IMG/VR virus record: IMGVR_UViG_2617270980_000009
Reading direction: 5' to 3' (one strand)
DNA: 11,347 bases
Source of the DNA: a virus
Lineage: Duplodnaviria > Heunggongvirae > Uroviricota > Caudoviricetes
Of this stretch, positions 3,344 to 10,763 are shown piece by piece. The notes under the pieces are model-generated. The model saw only the letters and a list, made by a program, of their open reading frames with translations. It had not been told where the DNA came from and made no database searches. Numbering within the stretch: position 1 is the first letter of the stretch; every line of letters begins with the position of its first letter. A program made the translations under genes and the position numbers.

Positions 3344-3637
3344 TTAGTCCGATTCACGCTTTTGTAGAATCGTTCCCAGAATGCTATACAGCTCATTAGC
3401 CTGTTGCTCCATCATTGAGACGGAGGCTATACGGTGCAAAGTGATTTCAGGAGGTGGCACACCTCCATCTTCTTGCTGTGGAGGAAAAACATAAGATTTA
3501 ATAAAAAAGTTGAAGCATATGAACTCTCCCGCACTCGAACTGTATTTGCAGGCATCTGAATAATCGGAAAAATAATCATTATAGATTTCCGCATTTTCAA
3601 TCATTTTTCGATTTCTCGTCGTTACATGATTGTCCAT
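3344..3637 (-). CDS. Hypothetical protein (97 aa) in an AT-rich island, transcribed divergently from the com/mom-like pair
   Basis: Minus-strand ORF with SD aagagg (reverse complement of 3643-3648) 5 nt upstream of its ATG (3637-3635). Codon usage is AT-rich and unlike the flanking lambdoid genes. No family recognised. Confidence 0.5.
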   Translation of the reverse strand: MDNHVTTRNRKMIENAEIYNDYFSDYSDACKYSSSAGEFICFNFFIKSYVFPPQQEDGGVPPPEITLHRIASVSMMEQQANELYSILGTILQKRESD

Positions 3638-3760
3638 AGCAGCCTCTTACGCTGGCAATTAACCAATTGACTTCTATAAATTAGTTGATTTGTTTGCTTT
3701 GCGGTATTCAAATGTACAATCATTCAGCACTTATGCGTTACAGCACCGTTTAAAATTAGT

Positions 3761-3850
3761 GATCAAACTCATAAATTTTCGCTAATGACATTTCGTGTTA
3801 TTTGTTGTATCAATTAAATAAATCAAATCGATCGTTTTTGTCGATCGATT
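3761..3850. promoter_or_regulatory. Putative regulatory region upstream of com: perfect inverted repeat AATCGATCG-n7-CGATCGATT (3826-3850) and three GATC (Dam) sites at 3761, 3830 and 3843
   Basis: Read directly from the sequence. Both arms contain the palindrome CGATCG. The region lies in the 256-bp AT-rich divergent intergenic space between the 97-aa ORF and com. Confidence 0.4.
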
Positions 3851-3893
3851 GAGTGATAAAGATATCAACAACAAAGCAGGAGGTTATGCGGCC

Positions 3894-4094
3894 ATGTATC
3901 GAAACATACGGTGCCGACATTGTAACAAGCTACTGGCACGAGCCAGCTTCAGTTATCTGGAAGTCAAATGTCCGCGCTGTAAAACCCTCAATCAAATCAC
4001 ATCTCAGAGCGCCACAGAGCACCCCACATACACAAGGAAATCCTGTCGTGGGGAACAGAAAGCAAGTTACATCCCGTATCATCAGCACGCCTGA
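3894..4094 (+). CDS. com: Com-like zinc-finger translational activator (phage Mu Com homolog), 66 aa
   Basis: [45 protein letters not shown]... aligns with Mu Com as I recall it (MKSIRCKNCNKLLFKADSFDHIEIRCPRCKRHII...EHPTEK), including the CxxC...CPRC zinc-binding cysteines. SD aggagg (3878-3883) is 10 nt upstream of ATG 3894. The track ORF start at 3849 is rejected because it has no SD. Confidence 0.7.
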
Positions 4095-4785
4095 ACTTAT
4101 TCACTATAACGACAATATCGTCGGTTATGGCTCCCGTGAGTTACGGGTTGAGACAATAAGTTGCTGGCTGGCCCGGCTGGTCGTCGTCAATAAACATTAC
4201 AGCCATCGTTTCGTAAATAATTCCTACCTTCATCTGGGCATATTTTCAGAACGGGAGCTGGTTGGCGTAATGCAATGGGGTTATGCCCTTAATCCAAACA
4301 ATGGTGCACGCGTCGTAACTGGCACGCAGAACCGCGAATATATGGAGCTTAACCGGTTATGGCTGCATGACTGTATGCCGAGAAACTCCGAATCAAGGGC
4401 AATCAGTTACGCGCTCAAACTAATCAGACAACTTTATCCGCAGGTGCAGTGGGTTCAGTCGTTTGCAGATGAGCGTTGTGGCTGTCTTGGTGTCGTGTAC
4501 CAGGCAAGCAATTTTGATTATGTAGGCAGTCATGAAACAACATTCTATGAACTTGATGGCGAGTGGTATCACGAGATTTGCAAGAATGCAATCAAACGAG
4601 GAGGACAGCGAGGTGAACATCTGCGGGCTAATATCGACAGAGCCAGTGTTCATAAATTCCGTCAGTTTCGTTACATCCGGTTTCTGGACAAGAGAGCCAG
4701 AAAACGCCTTAACACAAAGCTATTCAAAGTCCAGCCTTACCCAAAACCACAAACAGTTAAAACTGGTTTGAAAGAGAGTGAATGA
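4048..4785 (+). CDS. mom: Mom-like DNA modification protein (phage Mu Mom homolog, adenine-modifying anti-restriction function); start inferred as GTG 4048, overlapping the 3' end of com
   Basis: Long ORF in frame 1 directly overlapping a Com homolog, as in Mu. There is no in-frame ATG between 3886 and about codon 137, whereas GTG 4048 has an upstream AGGA (4035-4038) and gives ~245 aa, close to Mu Mom (~231 aa). Assignment rests mainly on synteny with com and on size; I cannot verify Mom sequence motifs from memory. Confidence 0.55.
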
Positions 4786-5701
4786 ACGCTTAAAAACTCA
4801 TTCTAAAACTCAAAAGAAAAGCGCCGATTTAGTATCAAATAAGTTGCGTATCGGCGTTTTTCAGCGGTATCAAATGAAATGCAAATCGGTATCAAAAAAA
4901 TCGCCGCGCTATAGTATCCGTGAGAACGACGACGGCACGTATGCCATCACCGCCGTGCAGCATGTACCGGAAAAAGAGGCCATCGTGGATAACGGGGCGC
5001 ACTTTGACGGCGACCAGAGCGGCACGGTGAATGGTGTCACGCCGCCAGCGGTGCAGCACCTGACCGCCGAAGTCACCGCAGACAGCGGGGAATATCAGGT
5101 GCTGGCGCGCTGGGACACGCCGAAGGTGGTGAAGGGCGTGAACTTCCTGCTCCGTCTGACCGTAACAGCGGATGACGGCAGTGAGCGGCTGGTCAGCACG
5201 GCCCGGACGACGGAAACCACATACCGCTTCAGGCAACTGGCGCTGGGGCGTTACACGCTGACGGTCCGGGCGGTAAATGTGTGGGGACAGCAGGGCGATC
5301 CGGCGTCGGTATCGTTCCGGATTGCCGCCCCGGCAGCGCCGTCGCGGATTGAGCTGACGCCGGGCTATTTTCAGATAACTGCCACGCCGCATCTTGCGGT
5401 TTATGATCCGACGGTACAGTTTGAGTTCTGGTTCTCGGAAACGCGGATTACCGATATCAGGCAGGTTGAAACCACAGCCCGCTACCTTGGCACGGGACTG
5501 TACTGGATAGCCGCCAGTATCAATATCAAACCGGGCCATGATTATTATTTTTACGTTCGCAGTGTGAACACCGTTGGCAAATCGGCATTCGTGGAGGCCG
5601 TCGGTCAGCCGAGTGATGATGCAGAAGGCTACCTGGATTTTTTCAAAGGCAAGATACCGAATCCCATCTCGGTAAAGAGCTGCTGGAAAAAGTTGATCTG
5701 A
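4778..5701 (+). pseudogene. J: Lambda J-like host specificity (central tail fibre) gene, internal fragment: 5'-truncated remnant (J homology starts near 4907) ending at a frameshift
   Basis: From about codon 44 the translation ([35 protein letters not shown]...YLDFFKGK) matches the C-terminal third of lambda J as I recall it. The first ~43 codons are AT-rich junction sequence. A 1-nt loss near 5654-5657 (ata-ccg where a functional gene would read ata-acc-gaa) shifts the frame and gives a premature stop at 5699-5701. Confidence 0.8.
4821..4861 (+). terminator. Possible rho-independent terminator after the mom-like gene
   Basis: gcgccgat (4821-4828) pairs with atcggcg (4850-4856), followed by ttttt (4857-4861). 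The 21-nt loop is long, so confidence is low. Confidence 0.35.
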
Positions 5702-5802: not shown

Positions 5803-6630
5803 GTGGGCTGTGAAGCTGAGCAGACCAAAGACGGAAAACATTATATTGCGGGTATCGGTGCCGGTATTGAGAACACCCCCGACGGCATGCAGAGTCAGGT
5901 GCTGCTGGCGGCAGACAGGATTGCGATGATTAATCCTGCGAATGGCAACACAAAGCCGATGTTTGTTGGTCAGGGCGATCAGATATTCATGAACGACGTG
6001 TTCCTGAAGCGCCTGACAGCCCCCACCATTACCAGCGGTGGCAGTCCTCCGGTATTTTCCCTGACACCAGACGGGCGACTGACGGCGAAAAATGCGGATA
6101 TCAGTGGCAGTGTGAATGCGAACGCCGGGACGCTAAACAACGTCACGATAAATGAGAACTGTACGATTAAGGGCATGCTGGAGGCGACCCAGGTCAGAGG
6201 CGATTTCGTTAAAACAGTATCCAAATCATTCCCGAAGAAGGCTGGTACGTGGGGTAACACGGAAACACCAAACGGGACGGTTACAGTCACTATCAGCGAT
6301 GATCATAACTTTGACCGTCAAATCATTATTCCGCCCATTATTTTTAACGGTGTGGCGTATGACGATCCTGGGAGCGGAAATAACCCCGGAGGCACGAGAT
6401 ACACAGGTTATGGTTTTGAAGTTCGCAAAAACGGCGTATTAATCGCATCCAGAGAAACTAAAGGGGCCATTCCCGGTAGTTACAGTGCAGTTATTGATAT
6501 GCCTAGTGGTGGTGGAAGCGTCACTCTGGAGTTTAAGATTTTCCAGAAAGGCAATCAGGGGGCAGGCAATATCACCGACTGTACGGTGATTGTGACCAAA
6601 AAGGCTGCTTCCGGCATCAGTATTCGTTGA
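5803..6630 (+). pseudogene. J: Lambda J-like host specificity gene, C-terminal receptor-binding portion, separated from the upstream fragment by frameshifts
   Basis: Translation [14 protein letters not shown]...[37 protein letters not shown]...GISIR matches the lambda J C-terminus from memory. J-like coding between 5659 and 5820 continues in other frames: [34 protein letters not shown] in frame 1 up to the stop at 5776-5778, then [18 protein letters not shown] in frame 2. Confidence 0.8.
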
Positions 6631-6700: not shown

Positions 6701-7300
6701 ATGCGTAAACTTTATGCCGCCATTTTGTCCGCAGCCATTTGTCTGGCCGTATCCGGTGCGCCTGCATGGGCATCTGAACATCAGTCCACGCTGAGCGCGG
6801 GGTATCTTCATGCCTCGACGAACGTTCCCGGCAGCGATGATCTTAACGGGATTAACGTGAAATACCGTTATGAGTTTACGGACACACTGGGGCTGGTGAC
6901 GTCATTCAGCTATGCAGGAGACAAGAATCGCCAGCTTACCCGTTACAGCGATACCCGCTGGCATGAAGATTCCGTGCGTAACCGCTGGTTCAGCGTGATG
7001 GTGGGGCCGTCTGTGCGCGTGAATGAATGGTTCAGCGCGTATGCGATGGCGGGTATGGCTTACAGCCGTGTGTCGACTTTCTCCGGGGATTATCTCCGCG
7101 TAACTGACAACAAGGGGAAAACGCACGACGTGCTGACCGGAAGTGATGACGGTCGCCACAGCAACACGTCTCTGGCGTGGGGAGCTGGCGTGCAGTTTAA
7201 CCCGACCGAATCCGTGGCCATTGATATTGCTTATGAAGGCTCCGGCAGTGGCGACTGGCGCACTGACGGTTTCATCGTGGGTGTCGGTTATAAGTTCTGA
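6701..7300 (+). CDS. lom: Lom outer-membrane protein (Ail/OmpX/PagC family beta-barrel), 199 aa with signal peptide
   Basis: Signal peptide [24 protein letters not shown]. Motifs [12 protein letters not shown] and the C-terminal [24 protein letters not shown] match lambda Lom from memory. SD agagg is 5 nt upstream. Position between J and stf is as in lambda. Confidence 0.9.
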
Positions 7301-7364: not shown

Positions 7365-10300
7365 ATGGCAGTAAAGATTTCAGGTGTACTGAAAGACGGC
7401 ACAGGAAAACCGGTACAGAACTGCACAATCCAGCTGAAAGCAAAACGTAACAGCACCGCGGTGGTGGTGAACACGCTGGCCTCAGAAAATCCGGATGAAG
7501 CCGGGCGTTACAGCATGGACGTTGAGTACGGTCAGTACAGCGTTATTCTGTTGGTGGAAGGATTCCCGCCGTCACATGCCGGGACCATCACCGTGTATGA
7601 AGATTCCCGACCCGGTACGCTGAATGATTTTCTCGGTGCCATGACGGAGGATGATGCCCGTCCGGAGGCTCTGCGCCGTTTTGAACTGATGGTGGAAGAG
7701 GTGGCGCGTAACGCGTCCGCGGTGGCACAGAACACGGCAGCCGCGAAGAAGTCAGCCGGCGATGCCGGCACATCTGCCCGTGAGGCGGCAACCCATGCGA
7801 CTGATGCTGCAGGCTCAGCACGCGCAGCCAGCACGTCAGCCGGACAGGCCGCTTCGTCGGCTCAGTCAGCGTCTTCCAGCGCAGGAACGGCATCAACAAA
7901 GGCCACTGAAGCGGAAAAAAGTGCTGCCGCTGCAGAGTCCTCAAAAAGCGCGGCAGCTACCAGTGCCAGTGCCGCGAAAACGTCAGAAACGAATGCTGCA
8001 GCGTCACAACAATCAGCAGCCACTTCTGCATCCACCGCGACTACGAAAGCGTCAGAAGCTGCCACCTCAGCCCGGGATGCGTCGGCTTCAAAAGAGGCGG
8101 CAAAATCATCAGAAACGAACGCATCCTCGAGCGCCAGTAGCGCAGCTTCCTCGGCAACGGCGGCAGCAAATTCCGCGAAGGCGGCAAAAACGTCCGAGAC
8201 GAACGCCAGGTCTTCTGAGACGGCAGCGGGACAGAGCGCCTCAGCTGCGGCAGGCTCAAAAACAGCGGCTGCGTCGTCTGCCAGTGCCGCGTCAACAAGT
8301 GCCGGGCAGGCCTCAGCCAGTGCCATCGCCGCCGGAAAATCGGCAGAAAGCGCCGCATCATCCGCTTCAACAGCCACAACGAAGGCTGGCGAAGCCACTG
8401 AACAGGCCAGCGCAGCAGCGAGGTCTGCTTCCGCAGCGAAGACATCCGAAACGAACGCGAAAGCGTCGGAAACCAGCGCAGAATCCTCAAAAACGGCAGC
8501 CGCATCGTCCGCCAGTTCGGCAGCGTCATCGGCATCATCTGCGTCTGCTTCAAAAGATGAGGCGACCAGACAGGCGTCAGCAGCGAAGGGCAGCGCCACG
8601 ACGGCATCCACGAAAGCAACAGAGGCGGCAGGCAGTGCGACGGCTGCATCTCAGAGCAAAACTGCTGCCGAATCTGCTGCGACTCGTGCAGAAGCTGCCG
8701 CTGATCGTGCTGAAGAGATTGCCGGTGCAGTTGCGATGGAAGACGCAAGCCTTACAACTAAAGGTGTTGTGAAACTTAGCAGTGCTGTCGATAGCACCAG
8801 TGAATCTTTAGCCGCGACACCAAAAGCAGTTAAGACCGCATATGATAATGCTGAAAAACGACTACAGAAGGATCAGAATGGTGCTGATATCCCCGACAAG
8901 GGCCGCTTCCTGAATAACATTAATGTTTACAGCAAAGGTGAAGTGGATCAGAAAAAGGGGATGCGATACGTTGTGGTAAATGCCCCGGCGGGTGTCCAGG
9001 AAGGTAAATATTATCCGTTAGTGATAAAAAGGAATGACAGCCATCGGGCATCCCGCGTTGTCATTTCAACGCCAAGTCGCACAGCTAATCACAGAATGAA
9101 TAACTGTGAGTTTAATGGTTTTGTTTGCGCAGGCGGCTGGACGGACCGGGGTAGCTATGCCTGTGGTATGTTCTGGGCTTATTCATCATCGGAACGCGCT
9201 ATTCATTCCATTCTGATGAGTAATAAAGGCGATACCGTAGACAGCGTATTCTATATAGAAGGTGGGGCATTTCCCGTAGAGGTCTTTTTAGAAGAAGGAC
9301 TTTCTGTTACTGCTCCTGCTTCTGATTATGTTGTTGCTGAAACGACTTATAAATTTGGCGCAACTGATCCTTATTCTGAATCAGTTGCGGTAAATTTAAT
9401 TTTAGATTTTAAACAAGGTAATGGATTTTATAGTTCGTATCCTGTTTTGAGTAAGTCAGACATTAGCGGTAATAAGGTTTACGCTAATGATGAAGTTATT
9501 GTCCGTAGTCAGAATGCGTTAAGGATGATTGCTGGCGATTACGGTGTCATATGGCGAAATGATGGAGCAAATACTTACTTGCTCATGACTGATAAAGGCG
9601 ACCAGTACGGTGGCTGGAACGGTCTTCGACCATTTGCAGTAAATAACGCAACAGGTGAAGTGACGATCAATACACCACTTAATTCTCCAAAAGGGGTTAA
9701 GGGGAACTCTGATACAGCTACGAAACTTCAGACTGCAAGAAAAATATCCGGTGTTCCATTTGATGGCTCTACTGATATCACTTTAACCGCCGCGCATGTT
9801 GCCGCTTTCGCAAGAAGAGCAACAGGGTCATATGCTGATGCTGATGGCGGCGTGCCGTGGAATGCTGAATCTGGTGCTTATAATGTAACTAGAACGGGCG
9901 ACAGCTATATTCTGGTTAACTTCTATACCGGAGTCGGAAGTTGCCGGACCTTGCAGATGAAGGCGCATTACAGAAATGGTGGTCTGTTCTACCGTTCTTC
10001 AAGAGACGGTTATGGTTTTGAGGAAGACTGGGCAGAAGTTTATACCTCGAAAAATCTTCCACCAGAAAGCTACCCAGTCGGCGCACCAATCCCGTGGCCA
10101 TCAGATACCGTTCCGTCTGGTTATGCTCTGATGCAGGGGCAGACTTTTGACAAATCTGCCTACCCGAAACTTGCAGCCGCTTATCCGTCAGGCGTGATCC
10201 CTGATATGCGTGGCTGGACGATTAAGGGCAAGCCCGCCAGTGGTCGTGCCGTATTGTCTCAGGAACAGGACGGCATAAAATCGCATACCCACAGCGCCAG

Positions 10301-10763
10301 CGCATCCAGTACGGATTTGGGGACGAAAACCACATCGTCGTTTGATTACGGAACCAAATCCACGAATAACACCGGGGCGCATACCCATAGTATTAGCGGG
10401 ACCGCAAATAGTGCCGGCGCGCACCAACACAAGAGTTCCGGTGCATTTGGTGGCACGAACACGAGCATTTTCCCTAATGGTTATACCGCGATTTCAAATC
10501 CAAGCGCGGGGATTATGAGCACAACAAGCGGTAGTGGCCAGACTCGTAATGCAGGGAAGACATCATCAGATGGTGCTCATACCCACTCGCTGTCCGGCAC
10601 TGCTGCAAGCGCAGGCGCACATGCACATACTGTCGGTATTGGTGCTCATACGCACTCCGTTGCGATTGGCTCACATGGACACACCATCACCGTTAACGCT
10701 GCGGGTAACGCGGAAAACACCGTCAAAAACATCGCATTTAACTATATTGTGAGGCTTGCATAA
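7365..10763 (+). CDS. stf: Side tail fibre protein Stf (lambda Stf / T4 gp37-like), 1132 aa, mosaic with an extended Ala/Ser-rich repeat region and an inserted low-GC central domain
   Basis: N-terminus [26 protein letters not shown]...[16 protein letters not shown] and C-terminus ...[31 protein letters not shown] match lambda Stf from memory. His-x-His repeats (GAHTHS, GAHAHT, GAHTHS, GSHGHT) are present near the C-terminus. The stop overlaps the tfa start (taATG at 10761-10765). Confidence 0.9.
7730..8700 (+). repeat. Low-complexity, GC-rich Ala/Ser/Thr repeat region inside stf, with recurring AAKTSETNA-type units
   Basis: Motifs such as [20 protein letters not shown] and KTAAASSAS recur in the translation. 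The same repetitive DNA yields long spurious ORFs in other frames and on the minus strand. Confidence 0.6.

Follow-up and report, generated by a model that had tools for sequence, protein, structure and literature searches.

The com-mom locus of this prophage raises the question of how translation of mom is started, as the mom start codon appears to lie within a base-paired stem inside the coding region of the preceding gene, com. The window analysed here is a stretch of phage DNA of 11,347 nucleotides, of which a preliminary description had proposed that a stem-loop at 4022-4053 sequesters the mom start, as in phage Mu. Comparison of sequences indicates that this stem-loop, together with an adjacent Com-binding hairpin, probably represents, in Sp18-type prophages, the orthologue of the translation inhibition structure (TIS) of Mu.

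The com-mom locus of a Mu-like prophage

The com and mom genes (Table 1) belong to a Mu-like E. coli prophage of the Sp18 type. The segment from 3700 to 4800 shares 100% identity with E. coli JE86-ST05 and 94-95% with the Sakai (O157:H7) prophage Sp18 ('Mu-like phage'). Of 5426 complete E. coli genomes, 233 contain a match to the com-mom segment, Sakai included. Both genes have equivalent coordinates in the JE86-ST05 and Sakai Sp18 annotations, where mom is read from the same GTG. Com scores 48.2 bits against its Pfam family (gathering cut-off 22.9), with cysteines at residues 7, 10, 26 and 29, and shares 45% identity with Mu Com, retaining the four zinc-binding cysteines. Mom matches PF25680 with 261 bits over profile positions 1-202 of 202, the domain starting at residue 31, and the DNA is 72% identical to Mu mom, alignable only from 4097 onward. 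The com stop codon occupies 4092-4094, the end of com lying 44 nt past GTG 4048.

The Mu-like prophage ends on the right at 4913 (...GCGCTATA) and lies within a lambdoid prophage, in its tip-attachment gene J, the remains of which follow (Table 1). The same prophage is located in citF in JE86-ST05 and in sorM in Sakai, the behaviour expected from a transposing phage. The window also has an intact open reading frame of 684 aa at 484-2538, which encodes SASA (sialate O-acetylesterase-like) and DUF6645 domains; in the JE86-ST05 prophage, near-identical in other respects, its counterpart carries a frameshift according to the annotation. Upstream of com, a perfect 9-bp inverted repeat at 3826-3850 (AATCGATCG-N7-CGATCGATT) includes two GATC sites, 44-68 nt 5' of the com ATG, and was scored as terminator-like on the minus strand in a promoter/terminator scan. 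GATC clusters are found 5' of com in all lineages examined, Mu included. Transcription of Mu mom is controlled by Dam methylation and OxyR, and the 3826-3850 region probably plays the corresponding part here.

Table 1. Features of the com-mom locus and of the genes to its right (window coordinates).
Feature	Position	Strand	Remarks
com Shine-Dalgarno AGGAGG	3878-3883	+	10 nt 5' of com ATG 3894; read from sequence
com	3894-4094	+	66 aa, CCCC zinc-ribbon translational activator; Pfam PF10122 Zn_ribbon_Com, E=7.5e-13
Hairpin 1, putative Com-binding, GCGC[CACAGA]GCAC	4009-4022	+	aligns with Mu AUGC[CUGCGA]GCAU
TIS helix 5' arm CCCCAC	4022-4027	+	C4022 common to hairpin 1
TIS interior	4028-4047	+	SD AAGGA 4034-4038 and predicted inner anti-SD helix
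TIS helix 3' arm GUGGGG	4048-4053	+	mom GUG start 4048-4050 and Gly codon 2
mom	4048-4785	+	245 aa, Mom-family DNA adenine modification enzyme; Pfam Mom, E=7.8e-78
J fragment 1	4914-5701		Ig_J domains
J fragment 2	5803-6630		Phage_Tail_Tip and C-terminal receptor-binding domain
lom	6701-7300		past J fragments
Tail fibre gene	7365-10763		past lom
Tail-fibre assembly gene	10763 onward		

Predicted fold and conservation of the mom initiation region

As first described, the arms CCCCAC and GUGGGG are exact reverse complements spaced by 20 nt within com, the 3' arm carrying the GTG. The whole RNA element sits in the 3' third of com, and the helix encloses the Shine-Dalgarno (SD) sequence AAGGA, 9 nt before GTG 4048. 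RNA folding places this helix in the minimum free energy (MFE) structure both of 4000-4070 (-14.3 kcal/mol) and of 3960-4100, with -11.5 kcal/mol for the hairpin alone and -8.5 kcal/mol for its six outer pairs only. The pair probability is 0.98-0.99 in contexts of 71-250 nt, 0.93-0.98 in 390 nt and 0.70-0.86 in 600 nt, thus the helix is stable relative to alternative folds in all of these contexts. The tetranucleotide CCAC is present twice, at 4012-4015 in the loop of the putative Com site and at 4024-4027 in the 5' arm, and either copy could pair with GUGG 4048-4051, an alternative register that is disfavoured by the partition function.

Taken alone and in a single sequence, the stem is not beyond chance. 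The plus strand of the window contains 127 perfect 6-bp stems with loops of 3-30 nt, 24 of them with at least five G/C pairs; the fold of 4000-4070 has a z-score of -1.18, with 24 of 200 shuffled sequences folding as well. When the GUG was held fixed, 81 of 1000 composition-matched shuffles (8%) paired the start codon at least as fully. The mom start is the most fully paired of the eight gene starts in the window (1.0 versus 0.34-0.71). A scan of 3600-4900 against Rfam at E<=10 gave chance-level matches only, Rfam 15 having no model for the element. These single-sequence tests do not single out the hairpin, therefore the case rests on its position and on comparison with relatives.

The AGGA sequence had been placed in a 20-nt loop, and its location there is borne out, however the loop is not open because the SD residues G4036 and G4037 are predicted to pair with C4043 and C4042 (p=0.97). 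This inner anti-SD helix comprises A4032-U4046, C4033-G4045, A4034-U4044, G4036-C4043 and G4037-C4042, in which the core is AGG 4035-4037 with CCU 4042-4044 and the flanking ACA/UGU pairs are weaker. The AGG/CCU pairing is retained in the window and in the L030, L031, L032 and L002 lineages, which have different loops, and the CC is supplied by UCC, GCC or ACC codons (Com residues Ser, Ala or Thr). Mu, in contrast, is without this helix, and its SD GG can form only G.U pairs beside the stem. In the present prophage the modelled fold suggests that the inner helix would matter for access to the SD.

The hairpin directly 5' of the helix, referred to here as hairpin 1, corresponds to the Com-binding hairpin of Mu, for which a motif 5'-CC(N)2-3GAG-3' in a hairpin with a C-G closing pair, proximal to the TIS, has been described (PMC6483171). 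The window motif CCACAGAG at 4012-4019 conforms to CC(N)3GAG, has a 6-nt loop (CACAGA) closed by C4012-G4019, and ends 2 nt before the TIS arm. The stem is formed by G4009-C4022, G4011-C4020 and C4012-G4019, with a C.A mismatch between 4010 and 4021 that is carried by the window lineage alone among 16 aligned sequences; the stems of its relatives are perfect and covarying. Hairpin 1 has a predicted pair probability of only 0.03-0.62 in the window lineage, and this low occupancy together with the mismatch suggests that Com recognition may differ here from that in Mu. A natural variant, L009 (C4010U), restores a U-A pair.

To place the element among its relatives, 179 loci encoding Mom relatives were fetched, comprising 80 viral, 19 genomic and 80 metagenomic loci; the 19 were obtained by scanning genome contigs with Mom alone, and the loci L119 and L137 came from the metagenome scan with alignment A1. 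A sequence of the form CCCA[CT]...GTGGG precedes a Mom-length reading frame in 81 of the 179, in addition to the window. Alignment A2 brings together 16 distinct sequences, and every one of them pairs the TIS helix in full (100%). At the outermost position nine sequences have C-G, six have U-A and one has U-G, one further pair shows a C-to-U wobble (L041), and the other four of the six are invariant, which gives no information for or against pairing. The covariation of the outer pair may reflect few evolutionary events. All four pairs of hairpin 1 show double changes across the 16 sequences, with stems such as AUGC/GCAU, ACGC/GCGU, GCAC/GUGC, GUGC/GCAU and GCGU/ACGC. In slid-register controls, with the 3' partners moved by 1-3 columns, pairing drops to 23-58%.

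The same two-hairpin consensus was returned independently by RNAalifold, and MFE folds of 14 lineages include the TIS helix in all and a separate hairpin directly 5' of it in most. The SD and start codon are placed precisely within the hairpin in all lineages. The covariance model R1, derived from A2 and so having the window among its own input sequences, gives one match in the window, at 4001-4060, and in more distant lineages it identifies a Com hairpin with covarying stems AGGC/GCCU, GGGC/GCCC and GAGC/GCUC. Two candidates were set aside: the pattern match in L140 that resembles a Mu-type TIS lies inside mom, the covariance model finding a different, weaker element upstream, and GCCAC/GUGGC in L092 was not counted as a compensatory change in the core helix, its 5' arm overlapping its own hairpin 1 in an ambiguous register. 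Alignment A2 could serve as the seed of a new Rfam family, as none exists for the element.

Proposed mechanism and alternative readings

In the proposed mechanism, the mom GUG in the com-mom mRNA would be locked in the G+C-rich 6-bp helix with CCCCAC, the SD would be further held by the inner helix (GG 4036-37 with CC 4042-43), and with both so held 30S subunits could not start translation of mom. Com, itself a product of this mRNA, would bind the neighbouring hairpin with its CACAGA loop and, as this hairpin shares C4022 with the TIS, would destabilise the latter and expose the SD and GUG. Mom, which is potentially toxic, would then be produced only once Com accumulates, late in infection. 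Inhibition of mom translation by the hairpin and its relief by Com are known for Mu, and by analogy are expected in this prophage. The shared nucleotide may also matter: C4022 has G4009 as its partner in hairpin 1 and G4053 in the TIS, and positions 4009, 4022 and 4053 co-vary as G-C-G in nine sequences, A-U-A in five, G-U-A in one (L050) and A-U-G in one (L089). This suggests that hairpin 1, when stabilised by Com, would take a base pair from the TIS.

The com gene overlaps the entire element, and ribosomes translating it pass through 4022-4053 to reach the stop codon at 4092-4094. It is therefore conceivable that the hairpin blocks mom while being opened mainly by these ribosomes, with a minor or absent contribution of Com binding. 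The com-mom overlap is retained in all Mu-type lineages, L137 included, and the weakness of hairpin 1 in the window lineage is in keeping with such translational coupling. Pure coupling, however, has no need of the conserved CC(N)3GAG motif or of a covarying hairpin 1 beside the TIS. Com supplied in trans reportedly activates mom translation, as Wulczyn, Bolker and Kahmann are said to have found in 1989. In addition, Mu Com binds Mu RNA specifically (PMC6483171). Coupling as the main means of opening the hairpin is considered unlikely, but it may contribute.

It is less likely still that the complementarity is coincidental, the arms being kept as Com residues (His-Pro-Thr and Cys/Arg-Gly) and as the first two Mom codons with no regulatory function. 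The abundance of 6-bp stems in the window, the non-significant z-score, the invariance of the four core pairs and the double coding of the region would all agree with this, but several observations argue against conservation as a coding by-product. The com frame reads the 5' arm as (CA)C-CCC-AC(A), and the proline codon CCC is invariant at its four-fold degenerate site across 14 lineages while the third base of the next codon, for threonine, which falls in the loop, varies among ACA, ACG and ACC. CCC is the rarest proline codon in E. coli. In com, the GU of the GUG comes from a UGU, CGU or AGU codon, such that the nucleotides are kept while the amino acid changes between Cys, Arg and Ser. In L137, from a soil metagenome, the com reading frame (458-625) reads the element (566-598) in another frame, unlike all other lineages, giving the Com residues Ala-Ser-His-Gly...Lys-Trp-Glu with hairpin 1 and the TIS intact in their nucleotides. 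The covariation of the outer TIS pair and of hairpin 1, the retention of the cassette ahead of a different gene (see below) and the existence of an experimentally studied homologue, the Mu TIS, likewise count against coincidence.

Population data show little variation in the element. Among 43 Sp18-type loci (17 haplotypes), 78 of 550 positions are variable, and within 4009-4053 only position 4010 varies, the C4010U change converting the C.A mismatch to a U-A pair. These loci were chosen by an identical 32-nt core, however all 44 loci with a Mom of at least 95% identity share that core, therefore the low variation is not an artefact of selection.

The mom frame is open from 3853 to 4785, with GTG 4048 in frame with the Mom-family reading frame, and also contains an ATG at 3886-3888 that follows the AGGAGG sequence of com. 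The preliminary description held that the mom-like reading frame has no ATG start, which is correct for the conserved start but overlooks this ATG, which is not conserved. Initiation there would give a 300-aa product with a 54-codon extension that overlaps all of com, and the hairpin would be internal to mom. The RefSeq entry of Mu mom is also annotated from an upstream ATG. Against this, ATG 3886 lies only 2 nt past the com SD and 8 nt before the com ATG, and relatives do not conserve the extension: L050 is interrupted by a TGA one codon ahead of the GTG and L089 by an in-frame TAA four codons ahead of it, and L086 is without any upstream ATG in the mom frame. The GTG is thus the only canonical start possible in L050 and L089. 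Conserved Mom sequence begins approximately 9 residues past the GTG, with the Pfam domain following from residue 31, and the next in-frame ATG downstream would remove part of the Mom domain. The PGAP/RefSeq annotation of two genomes, JE86-ST05 and Sakai, uses GTG 4048, and the Mu start has been placed at GUG (PMC6483171). Since the upstream extension is not conserved and a downstream ATG would cut the Mom domain, comparison of the sequences identifies GTG 4048 as the mom start, in agreement with the original proposal, and leaves a start at ATG 3886 with a very slight probability. It is plausible that GUG is retained because AUG would break the C4027-G4048 pair.

An attenuator or terminator between com and mom, or an element there for RNA processing or stability, to which a stable G+C-rich hairpin within an operon might otherwise point, is equally improbable, as no terminator was found on the plus strand in a scan of 3600-4950, no U-run lies behind the hairpin (GUGGGGAACAGAAAG), and the SD and start codon are positioned within it so precisely in every lineage.

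Distant lineages and comparison with known systems

The preferred reading, a Mu-type TIS opened by Com, extends to loci in which mom itself is replaced. In L002 (3110-4316; LC727895, a Mu-like phage inside a Stx1a phage), the same com, hairpin 1, TIS and first four codons (GUG GGG AAC A) are followed by a gene for a C5 cytosine methylase (350 aa, Pfam E = 2e-42) in place of mom. Homology to the window ends at 4061, placing the recombination joint at 4061/4062, directly past the hairpin. A further E. coli match, H48, also has this com-TIS cassette joined to a C5 cytosine methylase gene.

In com-mom lineages further removed from the window, different hairpins take the SD GGAG and/or the start codon into base pairs, with covariation such as GUACACC/GGAGUAC versus GCACACC/GGAGUGC. 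In L173 (505-540), L178 (505-540) and L183, whose Mom proteins are about 54% identical, the Com motif GGCC(N)3GAG is itself one strand of a 9-10-bp helix, its 5' arm, and pairs with CUCUGUGGCC, the arm in which the GUG start lies; the SD is masked by an inner CCUC/GGAG helix. This layout is one of direct competition, not of adjacent hairpins. A system richer than the Mu model, in which C4022 acts as a toggle, the SD is locked in two tiers, the cassette is portable among toxic modification genes, and the Com motif doubles as the start-pairing arm in L173 and L178, can be put forward only tentatively and seems doubtful.

The Com/TIS switch, characterised only in phage Mu, is conserved at the RNA level in Sp18-type prophages. 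The Mu-type switch has been known since about 1990, and the window adds an example with modest structural variation that leaves the understanding of the system unchanged, while the comparison fixes the mom start at GTG 4048. A literature search found no paper on the Sp18-type element or its covariation, the classical subscription papers being outside its coverage, and within that search the covariation and frame independence described here are the first comparative support found for the two-hairpin model. Several literature matches concern the use of Com-RNA pairs as tethering tools in genome engineering, for which natural site variants and their cognate Com proteins may be useful.

Translational control of com-mom in Mu is said to be treated by Wulczyn and Kahmann in 1991, by Hattman et al. 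in 1991 and in a 1999 review by Hattman. The counterpart of the window element can be aligned in Mu com, as UCCCAC-GGAGAAACAUU-GUGGGA with an 11-nt interior containing GGAG; read codon by codon, the 3' part of Mu com is ...AUGC[CUGCGA]GCAU-CCCAC-GGAGAAACAUU-GUGGG-A... This alignment, the Com-site hairpin and the presence of Com and Mom homologues support the Mu-style stem-loop first proposed for the mom initiation region. In both cases an operon with overlapping com and mom genes is situated at the right-hand end of a Mu-like prophage, the element lies inside the 3' part of com, and a core of CCCAC/GUGGG carries the mom GUG in its 3' arm with the SD inside. Both also have a neighbouring C-G-closed hairpin with a 6-nt loop carrying CC(N)3GAG, and the elements, like the homologous Com and Mom proteins, align with one another and share one consensus structure. 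The two differ in that the interior is 20 nt in the window and 11 nt in Mu, the outermost TIS pair is C-G rather than U-A, the hairpin 1 stem is GCGC/GCAC with a C.A mismatch whereas that of Mu is a perfect AUGC/GCAU, and the SD is AAGGA rather than GGAG. The window element is known from its sequence, whereas the Mu TIS has been studied experimentally and is thought to melt on Com binding; with a truncated Com, melting of the TIS was not observed, and the data on hairpin versus duplex binding conflict (PMC6483171).

In other Mu-like phages, Com homologues are paired with methyltransferases (B3 ORF47/48 and FluMu-type adenine methyltransferases), and SP18 has been named as a carrier of Mom and its regulators (PMC3299994). 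The window resembles these systems in that a Com homologue precedes a DNA-modification gene, however its downstream gene is a bona fide Mom, and the swap is seen only in relatives. The element is also similar to the start-site hairpin operators that mask an SD or start codon, the opening of which licenses initiation. The usual operator of this kind is a hairpin stabilised by a repressor, whereas an effector of the Com type would be the reverse, an activator that binds beside the hairpin.
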